Part shown: positions 22,682 to 37,725 of the stretch, piece after piece
How the letters are laid out: each line of letters opens with the position of its first letter
Numbering within the stretch: the stretch's first letter is position 1
NCBI GenBank assembly: GCA_963662285.2
Contig: CAXXMV010000008.1
Span: 896,001-960,000, forward strand
DNA length: 64,000 bases
Direction of reading: 5' to 3'
Source of the DNA: a bacterium
GTDB lineage: Bacteria; Hinthialibacterota; Hinthialibacteria; Hinthialibacterales; Hinthialibacteraceae
Translations under genes and position numbers: made by a program
The notes under the pieces: generated by a model
What the model was told of the DNA's origin: nothing
What the model saw: only the letters and a program-made list of their open reading frames with translations
Database searches by the model: none

Positions 22682-23146
22682 TCTAGTATAGAAAAACGCT
22701 TTCTGGCATAACTATTTGTAAGAGATTAGGATACAGGGATTTAGAGGGTTGGGTGGTTTTTATTTTTGGGTGGATTTTTGGTGGGTCGATAAGGCCGATC
22801 CACCCTACGCTAAGGCTAGGGTCAATGTCATGAAGTCAAGGTATTTCGCCCCATCTTTGGTGGCTTGATCAAGGGCTGAGCGCAATGCGCTCTTGCCCTT
22901 GGCACCCAGCGCCCAGTTCTAGTATAGAAAAACGCTTTCTGGCATAACTATTTTTAAGAGATTAGGATACAGGGATTTAGGGGGTTGGGTGGTTTTTATT
23001 TTTTGGTGGATTTTTGGTGGGTCGATAAGGCCGATCCACCCTACGCTAAGGCTAGGGTCAATGTCATGAAGTCAAGGTATTTCGCCCCATCTTTGGTGGC
23101 TTGATCAAGGACTGAGCGCAATGCGCTCTTGCCCTTGACGCCCAGT
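22682..23146 (+). repeat. 236-bp tandem duplication containing a family-D REP and a family-A element
   Basis: Units start at 22682 and 22918 (TCTAGTATAGAAAAACGC) and end at the family-A hairpin foot; a few substitutions between copies. Confidence 0.9.
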
Positions 23147-34412: not shown

Positions 34413-35657
34413 ATGAATAAGCTATCCATTACGCGAAGGAATTTTCTGAACAAAAGCGGCGCCTGCTGCGCGGCGTTGCCACTGGTCAATATTATTCCCC
34501 AGGCAGTCAAAGGCGCCAACGACCGCCTGGAGATCGGCGTTATCGGTTGCGGCAACCGCGGGCGTTTGGCATTGATGAAAGATATTCATAAATACGACGA
34601 AAAGAATAATGTGACCATCACTGCGGTATGCGACGTATGGCGCCAAAACCGTGAGCAGGCGGTATTGCAGACGTTGGAGTGGTATGGCAAAGCGGCGCGT
34701 CAGTTTGAAGACTATAGAGATATGCTGCCCCTCGAAAACCTGGATGCCGTGGTAATCGCCTGCCCCGATCATCTGCATTGCACTGTTCTGGAAGCCGCCG
34801 CTGAAGCAGGAAAAGACGCTTACTGCGAAAAGCCGCTGGCTATGAACATGAAAGAGCTGAACCGCACGGTAGACGCCGTTAAGAAAAATAAACGCATCGT
34901 ACAGGTTGGAACTCAATTACGCAGTTACGATTCATTCACTGGATGCCGTCAGGTGGTCAAAGATGGTTTGCTGGGGCGTTTTCTCAAAGCCAGCCAGGTG
35001 CGCAACACCTACCGCCCCTATTGGCACAGTCATGCTGTACCAGTCAAGGAATCCGATGCCAACTGGCCATTGTTTTTAGGACACAAGAAAAAACGGCCTT
35101 TCGATGCAGACCAGTTTGCGGTTTGGTATGGTTACCGTGATTTCTCATCCGGTCCCATTGGCGGTTATATGAGTCATTTCATTGATCTGGTGCATTACCT
35201 TACCGGCGCCAAGTTCCCCCATAGCGCCGTAACCCAAGGCGGAATATACGCCTGGATCGACCAGCGCACCTGTCCCGATTCGGTGCATACCCTTTTAGAA
35301 TATCCTGAAGGTTTCATGGTCAGTTACAGCACCATATTCGGTAACGCCAATGGCAGTTATATGAAATTCTTCGGCACGCGGGGCATGATCGACTCCACCG
35401 ATTGGGACAATCCATTCATGACCGGGGAAGGTTCAGAAGACCCCAACCGAATCCCGGCCAAAAAGGCCGTTACGCCTTTGCGCGTGCCGCATCACATGGA
35501 TAACTGGCTCCAATGCCTCAGAACCCGCACCCAGCCCAATGCCAACATCGATGCGGGCTATCAACATGCGGTGGCCTGCATTCTGGCTGATGAGGCAATG
35601 GTGCAAGAACGCAAGATGATCTTTAATCCCGACTCCCGGAAAATCAGGCCTGCTTGA
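34413..35657 (+). CDS. Tat-exported Gfo/Idh/MocA oxidoreductase
   Basis: TRRNFLN; IGCGNRG, PDHLH and YCEKPL motifs. Confidence 0.9.
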   Translation: MNKLSITRRNFLNKSGACCAALPLVNIIPQAVKGANDRLEIGVIGCGNRGRLALMKDIHKYDEKNNVTITAVCDVWRQNREQAVLQTLEWYGKAARQFEDYRDMLPLENLDAVVIACPDHLHCTVLEAAAEAGKDAYCEKPLAMNMKELNRTVDAVKKNKRIVQVGTQLRSYDSFTGCRQVVKDGLLGRFLKASQVRNTYRPYWHSHAVPVKESDANWPLFLGHKKKRPFDADQFAVWYGYRDFSSGPIGGYMSHFIDLVHYLTGAKFPHSAVTQGGIYAWIDQRTCPDSVHTLLEYPEGFMVSYSTIFGNANGSYMKFFGTRGMIDSTDWDNPFMTGEGSEDPNRIPAKKAVTPLRVPHHMDNWLQCLRTRTQPNANIDAGYQHAVACILADEAMVQERKMIFNPDSRKIRPA

Positions 35658-36265
35658 TAGGCATAGAGTAGCTCTAAAATCATAAGTTATCGCATCAAGG
35701 GCTGACCGCTTTGCGGTCTTGCCCTTGGCGCCCGCATTCTGGCTGATGAGGCAATGGTGCAAGAACGCAAGATGATCTTTAATCCCAACGCACGGAAAAT
35801 CAGGCCTGCTTGATAGGCATAGAGTGGTTCTAAAATCATAAGTTATCGCATCAAGGGCTGACCGCTTTGCGGTCTTGCCCTTGGCACCCGCTTGACCGCT
35901 TTGCGGACTTGCCCTTGGCGCCCGCTTGACCGCTTTGCGGTCTTGCCCTTGGTGCCCGTCAGGCCTGCTTGAGCGGCATAGAGCGGTTCTATAATCATAA
36001 GTTATCGCATCAAGGGCTGACCGCTTTGCGGTCTTGCCCTTGGCGCCCGCTTGACCGCTTTGCGGACTTGCCCTTGGCGCCCACCAGGCCTGCTTGAGCG
36101 GCATAGAGCGGTTCTAAAATCATAAGTTATCGCATCAAGGGCTGACCGCTTTGCGGTCTTGCCCTTGGCGCCCGCTTGACCGCTATGCGGACTTGCCCTT
36201 GGCGCCCGCCCTTACCACCCGCCGCATCAAGGGCTGGACACATTGCGGTCTTGCCCTTGGCGCCT
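35578..36265 (+). repeat. Nested tandem array of 10 units, all ending at the family-A hairpin foot
   Basis: Unit lengths about 156, 156, 34, 34, 91, 34, 91, 34, 13 and 45 bp, each ending GCCCTTGG[C/T][G/A]CC[C/T] (the 13-bp unit is degenerate). Confidence 0.9.
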
Positions 36266-36402
36266 GTGATATCACGATCCTCATATACAAATATGTTAAT
36301 AAATATCATTCTACATCTCTAATCCGCTCGATTTTTTGATAACTACAAGTAGTATGTATTCATAACATTTAATAAAAATTCACAATACTTTGGAGCAACC
36401 GT

Positions 36403-37725
36403 TTGTCGAAATTTCTTTCACCCAACTTTCCCTTTAAACCAAGACGTTTGCCTTTTTTTTACGGATGGATCATACTGGCGGTAAGCACCTTTGGCATCAT
36501 CATGAGCGTGCCGGGGCAAACCATCGGCGTCAGCGCATTTATTGATGACCTGTTGGTCGCACTCGGTTTGTCGCGTATACAGCTGAGCACCGCTTACATG
36601 ATCGGCACCATCGGCAGCGCATTTCTGCTGCCCTATTGCGGACGGGTCTTCGACCGCAGGGGCGCCCGGTGGATGGTGTTGGTCTCTACTGCGTTATCAT
36701 CTGTAACTTTGTTATTTCTCAGTCAATGCGACCGTATCGCGGCATTAATTACTTTCAGCGACAATCAGGCTATTGGTACATCGATCAGTTTTTTCGTGAT
36801 AACGATGGGTTTCCTTTTTCTACGTTTTTCCGGTCAGGGGCTGCTATGCATGACGGCCCGCTCCATGCTGGGCAAATGGTTCAACCGCCGGCGGGGCTTC
36901 GCATCAGGGATCAATGGAGTAATGGTCACCTTTTCATTCTCCATCGCGCCATTAGCCTTTAACTCCATTATTAATTCATATGGCTGGCGGGGAACCTGGA
37001 TATTTCTTTCGGCCATGACGGTATTTATGGCTTTCATTGGCTGGTTGTTTTTCAGAGATAATCCAGAAGAATGCGGCTTGAAAATGGATGGCGTCAGTGA
37101 AGCAGATCATGCCGAACATGTTAAAAAAGACTTTTTCAATGTAAAAAAGGAATACACGGTTAAAGAAGCGCGCAGGACATATCCATTCTGGGCGTTTAAT
37201 CTCGGTCTGGCCGCCCAGGCCTTGATAATCACCGCTGTAACATTTCACATAGTATCACTGGGCGCCGAGATGGGATTATCCAGGAATCAATCGCTGGGGA
37301 TATTCCTTCCCATGTCCATAATCAGCATATTCAGCAACTTTCTATTCGGCTGGCTCAGCGACCGCATCGCACTTAAATATTGTCTGGCGGTTATGATGAT
37401 AATGCTGACTTTAGGAGTCGGCGGAGTTCCCTTCTTCTCTCATACTCTGGGTCGGGCGGCGGTGATCCTCGGTTTCGGCGCCAGCGGCGGCGTGTTTGGA
37501 CCATTGGTTACGGTAGTATGGCCGCGGTATTATGGGCGCAAGCATCTAGGCGCCATCAGCAGCATGAATCTGGCATCCATGGTATTCGCCAGCGCCATCG
37601 GACCATTTATATTCGGCATGTCGAAAGCGTGGTTCGGCGGTTATAACGCCGGGATTTATGCTTGTCTGGCCCTGCCGCTGATTATTTTGCTGGGATCGTT
37701 TAAGGCCAATAATCCACAAGTTTGA
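36403..37725 (+). CDS. MFS transporter
   Basis: FFYGWII, GRVFDRRG, WFNRRRG, GWLSDR and YYGRKHLG motifs; about 12 TM helices. Confidence 0.9.
   Translation: MSKFLSPNFPFKPRRLPFFYGWIILAVSTFGIIMSVPGQTIGVSAFIDDLLVALGLSRIQLSTAYMIGTIGSAFLLPYCGRVFDRRGARWMVLVSTALSSVTLLFLSQCDRIAALITFSDNQAIGTSISFFVITMGFLFLRFSGQGLLCMTARSMLGKWFNRRRGFASGINGVMVTFSFSIAPLAFNSIINSYGWRGTWIFLSAMTVFMAFIGWLFFRDNPEECGLKMDGVSEADHAEHVKKDFFNVKKEYTVKEARRTYPFWAFNLGLAAQALIITAVTFHIVSLGAEMGLSRNQSLGIFLPMSIISIFSNFLFGWLSDRIALKYCLAVMMIMLTLGVGGVPFFSHTLGRAAVILGFGASGGVFGPLVTVVWPRYYGRKHLGAISSMNLASMVFASAIGPFIFGMSKAWFGGYNAGIYACLALPLIILLGSFKANNPQV

Follow-up and report, generated by a model that had tools for sequence, protein, structure and literature searches.

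A nested tandem array anchored at the foot of a repetitive extragenic palindrome in a Hinthialibacteraceae genome

Bacterial sequences of the repetitive extragenic palindromic (REP) type, together with the REP-associated tyrosine transposases (RAYTs) encoded beside them, form the closest described system to the locus considered here: a nested tandem array of ten units, each ending at the 3' foot of a REP hairpin, located at the end of an oxidoreductase gene in a bacterium of the family Hinthialibacteraceae (Hinthialibacterota). The array occupies positions 35578-36265 of a 64-kb stretch of DNA (the window; C8:896001-960000 of the 7.29-Mb, 44% G+C genome G000, assembled in 8 contigs), and coordinates without a contig name refer to this window. 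The genome-wide distribution of such arrays provides good support for the conclusion that the foot is a strand-specific hotspot of illegitimate joining. Pseudomonas fluorescens SBW25 harbors hundreds of extragenic palindromes, inverted doublets of these (REP doublets forming hairpins, REPINs), and several REP flavors, each beside its own RAYT; tandem REP or REPIN clusters that include flanking sequence are known both from this strain and from Escherichia coli, according to the portions of these papers drawn on here (PMC3116915, PMC3337134). For the tandem REPIN repeats, the corresponding part of one of these sources states that no explanation had been put forward (PMC3337134), and mechanisms of REP dissemination are called poorly understood in the excerpted part of another (PMC8266576).

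In the biochemical literature, as represented by the sections drawn on here, single-stranded DNA next to a REP is cleaved by known RAYTs to either side of the hairpin, the base 5' of the cut being a C (cuts between C and T, or between C and A); the covalent intermediate of the E. coli enzyme, TnpAREP, joins any 3'-OH in vitro, and this enzyme requires GTAG directly 5' of the stem and cuts between C and T at variable distance (PMC3479197, PMC8266576). The system described below resembles that of SBW25 in its extragenic palindromes, its doublets at discrete spacings, its pairing of flavors with RAYTs, and its tandem clusters that include flanking sequence; it differs, as far as the portion of the SBW25 account drawn on here extends, in its direct single REPs, its nested 5'-truncated units, its foot-anchored joints, and the inclusion of the 3' end of a gene (Bertels & Rainey 2011). 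It is also similar to the E. coli REPtron, in which the gene for an HUH/Y1 enzyme is flanked by its own REPs. Unlike in E. coli, however, the tag is a 3' GGCRCCC, the boundary falls between C and A or between C and G, and GTAG is rare.

Comparable geometry exists in several groups of mobile elements. IS200/IS605 elements (IS608, ISDra2), as well as IS91/ISCR elements and Helitrons with their one-ended rolling-circle capture, have a sharp right end 3' of a hairpin, no target duplication, seamless empty sites, and a replication-strand preference; with one end fixed and the other variable, they can capture pieces of flanking genes. These elements carry a transposase and move to new sites, whereas the captured flank here stays in tandem at the donor site. 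In 1990, Shyamala et al. reportedly described tandem chromosomal duplications in Salmonella and E. coli with REPs at the joins, involving distant REP pairs and spanning kilobases; in the present genome, by contrast, only one partner of each joint is a REP and the units measure 13-282 nt. No description of foot-anchored nested arrays was found in searches of open-access papers. What is new here is the grammar of the array: direct orientation, an end fixed at the foot, nested truncated units, mosaic subtypes, capture of a gene 3' end, and an empty site. The genome provides dozens of joints with one precisely placed end, as well as truncated units, mosaics, an empty site, and three RAYT-REP pairs. 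From these features, testable predictions can be drawn as to where cleavage occurs, which strand is active, and in which direction the reaction runs.

The array and its empty site in a relative

The array begins inside a gene of the Gfo/Idh/MocA family, the product of which scores above the cut-offs of both Pfam PF01408 and PF02894 and ends in RKIRPA, a C-terminus kept in nine homologues from other genera. When positions 35500-36300 are split at each 13-mer of the form GCCCTT...CC[CT], ten units of 156, 156, 34, 34, 91, 34, 91, 34, 13, and 45 nt are obtained, all ending in GCCCTTGGCGCCC-like feet (Table 1). Tandem Repeats Finder (TRF), which is independent of this motif cutting, detects periods of 156, 34, and 125 (34 + 91) in the array region, and a right-anchored alignment without gaps shows each unit to match the 156-nt unit up to its own left end, with only one to three junction bases per unit (GCT, GC, or G/A) outside the alignment. 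The original prediction, made from the sequence alone, of ten units with common right ends and differing left starts is therefore borne out. The hairpin of the primary REP element is CAAGGGC-TGACCGCTTTGCGGTCTT-GCCCTTG (35696-35727), and the 91-nt units begin at CAGGCCTGCTTGA, 7 nt ahead of the stop codon. The accompanying comparison with bacterial interspersed mosaic elements (BIMEs) needs correction: BIMEs have REPs at regular spacings and in alternating orientation, whereas all ten units and feet of this array are on the + strand, and because of this uniformly direct orientation the array is not BIME-like.

The duplication of the gene's 3' end is present as predicted, with GACTCCC in one copy and AACGCAC in the other. 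The final 25 codons of the gene, together with its stop codon, are found in both unit 1 and unit 2 (encoding ...ILADEAMVQERKMIFNP, then DS or NA, then RKIRPA), and the six differences between these units, which include those just named, are G/A, T/G, C/A, A/G, C/T, and G/A. The gene runs to its end in unit 1, and unit 2 represents a dead, non-functional copy of that 3' end; the array shows, in this way, that the underlying process can duplicate coding sequence at gene ends. The position encoding DS or NA varies among the nine homologues, so it is uninformative as to the ancestral state. Differences between units are clustered, both in this array (35631-35636, with three changes within 6 nt, and 35670-35672) and elsewhere: in the C6:1211937 array GAGTGATTA is aligned opposite GGGTGGTTG, and the units of the C8:889351 array alternate between CGTAGG and CATAAG. 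Such clusters point to copying with errors, to conversion, or to damage of exposed single strands, and not to point mutations that arose independently. A diversity-generating retroelement was considered, since a gene 3' end has been copied with substitutions beside a hairpin, and rejected, as the differences are not confined to template adenines and no reverse transcriptase gene is adjacent.

An empty site for the array is provided by a metagenomic contig (L033) on which the same gene is represented by its 152 C-terminal residues (95% amino-acid identity), with the same downstream gene for a major facilitator superfamily (MFS) transporter. In this contig the stop codon is directly followed by GTGATAT (...GGCTTGA, then GTGATATAAACC). 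In the window, the same seven bases stand after the last foot (...GGCGCCT, then GTGATATCACG), and the stop codon is followed by TAGGCATAGAG..., the beginning of the first REP leader. Because the stop codon of the relative abuts GTGATAT, the block at 35658-36265 is an insertion, or else was seamlessly lost in the relative; its right bound is exactly the end of the last foot, and there is no target duplication. It follows that the array formed, or was excised whole, after the split of lineages that are ~5% apart in protein. Among 30 relatives searched for close orthologous loci, the best match (68% nucleotide identity) was too distant.

Sequence data from two runs bear on the assembly of the locus. 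In run X2, 84% of sampled words are present, with graph contigs only; these contigs cover both flanks and break inside the array, the bin at 35762-35835 has no cover, and the joints listed from them involve the repeated hairpin and are not assignable to the array locus. The other run (X1, sediment metagenome) contains just a relative of the Gfo gene that is more distant. The breaks, and the fact that one X2 contig joins the left flank to the variants of unit 2 (35631 G>A, 35634 T>G, 35636 C>A), could be taken to indicate an assembly artefact or mis-ordered copies, but bubble popping in graph contigs accounts for this behavior. Furthermore, the units are diverged, the same grammar recurs at ~20 other loci on five contigs, and the genome assembly, made up of 8 contigs, includes arrays with as many as 29 feet; an artefact is therefore considered very improbable.

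Table 1. Features of the array, its flanks, and a second array in the window
Feature	Position	Strand	Remarks
Gfo/Idh/MocA-family oxidoreductase gene	34413..35657	+	Open reading frame, intact; last 80 nt form left part of unit 1
Primary REP element	35658..35733	+	38-nt leader, then hairpin, then foot ending CCC at 35733; directly after stop codon
Unit 1	35578..35733	+	156 nt; gene 3' end and REP element
Unit 2	35734..35889	+	156 nt; copy of unit 1 with 6 substitutions, 3 within 6 nt
Units 3 and 4	35890..35957	+	34 nt each; REP minus left arm, starting GCT+TGACCGC...
Units 5-8	35958..36207	+	91, 34, 91, and 34 nt; 125-nt compound unit, twice
Unit 9	36208..36220	+	13 nt; bare foot GCCCTTACCACCC
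Unit 10	36221..36265	+	45 nt; full T1b-subfamily hairpin (CTGGACACATTGCGGTC), foot ending CCT
GTGATAT	36266..36272	+	Original right flank; same 7 nt abut stop codon in L033
MFS transporter gene	36403..37725	+	Downstream; same neighbor in relative L033
Second array	22682..23145 (C8:918682-919145)	+	236 nt, twice; starts in unique DNA, ends at T1g foot

The hairpin foot across the genome

The hairpin and its foot belong to a large family. The two together (38 nt) occur in 170 copies at four or fewer mismatches, and the 13-nt foot matches 822 sites at two or fewer mismatches, compared with 59-110 for five scrambled 13-mers. A stricter definition retains 557 feet; these are distributed over 416 loci, and 54 of the loci have at least two. 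The full hairpin is present at 443 of these feet and falls into three subtypes: T1, comprising T1a (148 copies; inner stem GACCGC/GCGGTC), T1g (56 copies; inner stem GAGCGC/GCGCTC, a compensatory C-G to G-C swap), and T1b (25 copies); T2 (163 copies); and T3 (51 copies). Common to all is the outer stem CAAGGG/CCCTTG and a foot of GGCRCCC or GCCACCC. As single-stranded DNA, the full unit is predicted to fold as CGC..CAAGGGC.GACCGC-TTT-GCGGTC..GCCCTTG-GCG, followed by an unpaired CCC (-16.6 kcal/mol, z = -4.4).

In all five subtype classes, conservation drops from ~2 bits to at most 0.6 bit right after this CCC, and its leftward decay is slow; the next base is a purine in 394 of the 443 full copies. 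The invariant tag of the family is a 3' GGCRCCC, instead of a 5' GTAG. A conserved GTAG is not found at the 5' foot of the hairpin, exact matches within 30 nt upstream being limited to 54 of the 443 copies (28 of these at -14). The designation of the element as a non-GTAG REP stands insofar as no GTAG abuts the core hairpin, but requires qualification in view of these exact matches and of the T1 consensus, which has a degenerate cgTAGGTGG 11-17 nt upstream, beside a possible outer stem GGTGG/CCACC. Inverted neighboring pairs are arranged with feet outward in 48 cases (spacings of ~145, 185, and 213 nt) versus feet inward in 6, from which it follows that the foot is the outer terminus of REPIN-like doublets; feet-outward pairs account for just 96 of the 443 REPs. 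The 3' edge of the foot (...GGCRCCC) is, in this sense, the terminus of a mobile unit, and the original classification of the hairpin as a REP is upheld by the 443 full copies, the sharp 3' boundary, and the copies that flank RAYT genes.

The same edge terminates tandem arrays. TRF recovers 156 tandem-repeat regions genome-wide, 22 of them with feet, and periodicity was walked to both ends in 20 of these 22. Read in REP orientation, 16 of the 20 arrays walked have their 3' end between -10 and +4 nt of a foot end; where the offset is negative, the walk was halted by an A/G polymorphism that the foot itself contains. The arrays at C2:819538, C2:1601418, C8:863681, and C1:12975 do not conform; the last of these is half of an array that a 1.4-kb insertion has divided, and the other half ends at foot +3. 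This insertion (C1:13604-14994), probably an insertion sequence, splits an array of about ten 133-nt REP units; its ends are inverted (AAATCTGTGGGTGAA and TTCACCCACAGATTT), and it is accompanied by an 8-bp target duplication (GTTTGTTA).

Array starts, meanwhile, vary from 24 to 226 nt upstream of the foot. As classified by hand from printed junctions, 12 arrays start in non-REP DNA, and nine of these end at the foot, at +0 to +4 (the present array and those at window 22682-23145, C2:1495643, C6:1211937, C6:1249882, C8:585419, C8:784412, C8:843669, and C1:12975/15726). If phase were random, at least nine of 12 arrays would end at the foot with a probability of 2e-12 (5-nt window) or 3e-8 (15-nt window). 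The mirror pattern, in which the left end would be fixed at the hairpin and the right end free, is seen in no array among those walked. Array endpoints are accordingly strongly non-random with respect to the hairpin genome-wide, so that the random endpoints named in advance as a refutation of the original prediction are not what is observed, and the predicted combination of one fixed and one variable end is found both here and elsewhere in the genome.

Unequal homologous recombination between direct REPs, combined with internal deletions, could also give arrays that end at a foot, as the foot would simply be the point at which REP homology stops. Several arrays fit such a history, having n+1 REPs per n spacers and starting at a REP or its leader (C8:889331, C2:1477319, C1:32822). 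However, the 12 arrays that start in non-REP DNA cannot stem from crossing-over between REPs: unique DNA forms the start of the 156-nt unit and of eight other arrays, and with no REP to the left of these nine there is no homologous partner for crossing-over. Moreover, the five left ends within one 690-nt block would require many precise deletions, each starting at the foot. Recombination of this kind is therefore an unlikely origin for the array.

Shorter units provide additional joints. In 33 cases, a unit shorter than the hairpin (13-27 nt) stands directly after another foot, and the exact arrangement foot-N(0-18)-foot occurs 14 times, versus 0 for the reversed pattern (in G001, a draft of 580 contigs, it occurs 3 times). 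Nesting is likewise not confined to the present array: the C6:1228314-1229798 array has 29 feet and units of 85, 67, and 18 nt, and the C8:889331-890251 array has units of 89, 13, 22, 112, and 58 nt. In the second array of the window, AGCGCCC, a partial foot of 7 nt, lies at the internal junction, and AGT of the original flank comes after it. Between 13017 and 46746 of the window, all feet with a recognizable hairpin or arm are on the + strand, as are the neighboring genes that were checked. At the present locus, the foot has been used in at least five independent head-to-tail joints.

A fixed 3' end with 5' truncation, junction filler, and clustered substitutions would also be expected from RNA-templated copies, in which REP-ended transcripts are reverse-transcribed to varying lengths and inserted at the foot in the manner of 5'-truncated retrocopies, and the genome does contain two reverse transcriptase genes (C8:1292220 and C1:675690). 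These genes are both far from the array, however, and nothing ties them to REPs; there is no poly-A or priming signature, and the fixed end is the terminus of a DNA element that occurs in inverted doublets on both strands. Such an origin appears highly improbable.

The subtypes of the truncated units indicate that not all of them were copied from adjacent DNA. Among 11 that could be typed, seven differ in subtype from the preceding hairpin and four agree with it; T1-type GTCTTGCCC..., for example, stands behind T2 hairpins in the C6 array. In the present array, the T1b hairpin of unit 10 has 5 mismatches to unit 1 and 2 to five copies elsewhere in the genome, and unit 9 has 1 mismatch to the GCCACCC foot type and 3 to the local foot. 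Unit 10 does have the local leader CGCAT, found in 44 of 609 hairpins, and gene conversion may be its source. The proposal that flanking DNA was re-copied does not, then, account for every unit: it fails for units 9 and 10, which are closer to other subtypes, and for the mosaic units elsewhere. Pieces of odd subtype came in trans or by deletion between neighboring REPs, and one breakpoint is the foot in either case.

RAYT genes and the origin of the joints

The genome has six Y1-transposase matches, including three RAYT-like proteins of 185-189 aa that are mutually 59-61% identical. The REPs that flank their genes differ in subtype: four T1 REPs flank L004 (C8:829399-829953), T2 REPs flank L002, and T3 REPs flank L003. 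L004 lies 102 kb upstream of the array and, being flanked by the array's own subtype, is the cognate RAYT that the original prediction had invoked. Its product matches NCBIfam NF047646 ('REP-associated tyrosine transposase') with 101.9 bits against a cut-off of 80, and PF01797 with 39.4 bits; in alignment with E. coli TnpAREP (4er8; E = 6e-4), the HUH and Tyr-x-x-x-NPV motifs correspond, pairing PEHSHFL with PEHMHCI and NYCHMNPV with DYIYINPV. Orthologues with 58-69% identity are found in five other genera of the same family. Genome G002 has 48 REPs with the same outer stem and foot and a different inner hairpin, two of which adjoin its RAYT, and in G001 a REP also adjoins the RAYT, which is 69% identical. 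The system is therefore of the REP-RAYT kind known from Pseudomonas and E. coli, without a conserved GTAG at the stem. Also present in the genome are a fourth RAYT-like protein (L005, C1:405036-405254; 170 aa, with an HVHILL motif and no REP feet within 3 kb) and a classical IS200-type TnpA (L001, C1:1031050-1031409; 146 aa, PF01797 145.8 bits).

The 100-kb bin that contains the T1 RAYT gene has the most REPs genome-wide, with 42 full copies, and also contains 10 of the 54 loci with two or more feet. Across C8:800-1000 kb, which adds the next bin with the array itself, 13 of 36 loci are multi-foot, versus 41 of 380 elsewhere (p = 1.7e-4, with bins picked post hoc). For 285 of 443 copies, the strand that is locally G-rich carries the top strand of the REP (odds ratio 3.2, p = 5e-9), a bias that would place the top strand on the lagging-strand template, as in IS200/IS605.

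We consider it about an even chance (probability roughly 0.5) that the arrays arose through foot-anchored joints with the cognate RAYT nicking the top strand at the foot. A REP element directly after the Gfo stop codon has supplied its foot edge as one partner of each of the joints, with different upstream partners 11, 31, 43, 89, or 154 nt away, and one compound unit was duplicated later, giving the nested ten-unit array with its dead copy of the gene end. In the proposed scheme, the HUH/Y1 enzyme encoded at C8:829399-829953 would nick the top strand at the foot or within 3 nt of it. The free 3' end could then be passed to another 5' end by direct strand transfer; alternatively, the nick could become a one-ended break at a passing replication fork, with restart upstream on little or no homology and error-prone re-copying of the flank; or an excised circle could be copied by rolling circle. 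The 5'-truncated REP pieces of other subtypes may have been added in trans beside the resident foot. RAYT nicking as the cause of the joints fits the sequence data but is unproven, and the boundary between C and a purine loosely fits the known RAYT cuts, with a C 5' of the break.

Several observations weigh against this scheme. Breakpoints scatter from +0 to +3 nt after the CCC, no single dinucleotide rule for cleavage, such as the C and T of TnpAREP, holds at left and right breakpoints (which fall between C and G, G and C, T and A, or G and T), and microhomology of 1-4 nt (G/GC, AGC, GCCA) or filler of 1-3 nt (GCT, AGT) is present at several joints; together, these features fit template switching or end joining and speak against clean HUH ligation. 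There is no array excess around the two other RAYT genes, and the non-REP parts of units have matches only within the array and none elsewhere in the genome, giving no sign of transduction to other sites. The mosaic truncated units could stem from deletion between two neighboring REPs, GC skew and gene orientation may be confounded in the strand bias, and, since graph contigs break inside the array, the order of its interior is without independent read support.

The template-switching features of the joints make hairpin-promoted replication slippage a serious rival, to which we give well below even odds. In this alternative no RAYT is involved: the nascent strand folds after copying the palindrome, its 3' end is thereby freed or stacked and re-anneals upstream on 0-4 nt of microhomology, and the DNA in between is copied a second time, with deletions arising likewise. 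The strength of the hairpin, the microhomology or short filler at several joints, the scatter of breakpoints, and the purely local origin of the duplicated flank are all consistent with such a process. It does not explain the strand asymmetry, with the 3' foot fixed in nine arrays and the left base of the hairpin in none. Nor does it explain why the fixed point coincides with the transposition boundary and the edge of the empty-site indel rather than with the core stem, the base of which is 6-7 nt earlier. Microhomology, furthermore, is missing from several joints, the seven truncated units of differing subtype were not copied from the adjacent hairpin, and arrays are enriched near the RAYT gene.

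A break at the foot could also be made by another REP-binding enzyme, with illegitimate repair then building the array. DNA gyrase is a candidate, as REPs are known binding sites of gyrase and DNA polymerase I, and gyrase cleaves E. coli BIME-2, according to the part of that source drawn on here (PMC3479197). The joints do resemble end joining, but nothing specific points to gyrase, and a RAYT is favored instead by the strand asymmetry, by the location at the end of the element, and by the clustering around the RAYT gene; involvement of another enzyme is thus regarded as improbable.

Returning to RAYT nicking, a more specific version is that a domesticated RAYT nicks DNA at the foot in vivo, and that any such nick can seed error-prone re-copying on little homology, or strand transfer, starting at a fixed 3' end; these would build arrays and capture the 3' ends of neighboring genes. 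This we advance only tentatively, as an idea more likely to fail than to hold. If it were true, these arrays would be a bacterial, in situ counterpart of the one-ended capture by IS91 elements and Helitrons, and the truncated units would be a natural record of the points at which the reaction started and stopped.

The gene end and other intergenic palindromes

The array fills the space after the stop codon. In the relative, an ordinary hairpin (CAAAGTCCCTGACATAAGGGACTTTG, L033:487-537) follows the gene and is absent in the window; the REP array may have taken over 3'-end shaping from a hairpin of this kind. No Rfam family was detected at E of 1 or below within 35000-37000, and no intrinsic-terminator-like site within 35500-36500. 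A minus-strand open reading frame of 223 aa (35433-36104) was rejected as coding on the basis of unit lengths: 34, 91, and 125 nt are not multiples of three, and the open frame is therefore probably a by-product of the repetition.

The intergenic space of the genome also holds at least three other small palindrome families, which are CCCTCTCCCGGCGGGAGAGGG-like, GGTGGGCTACGC...AGCCCACC-like, and GGGCGCCCATGAAGGACGCCCCTACGGG-like, respectively. Example sites of these palindromes are C2:1485580-1485926, C8:843743, and L033:655-700, and the CCCTCTCCCGGCGGGAGAGGG-like palindrome is present in the relative's intergenic region as well.

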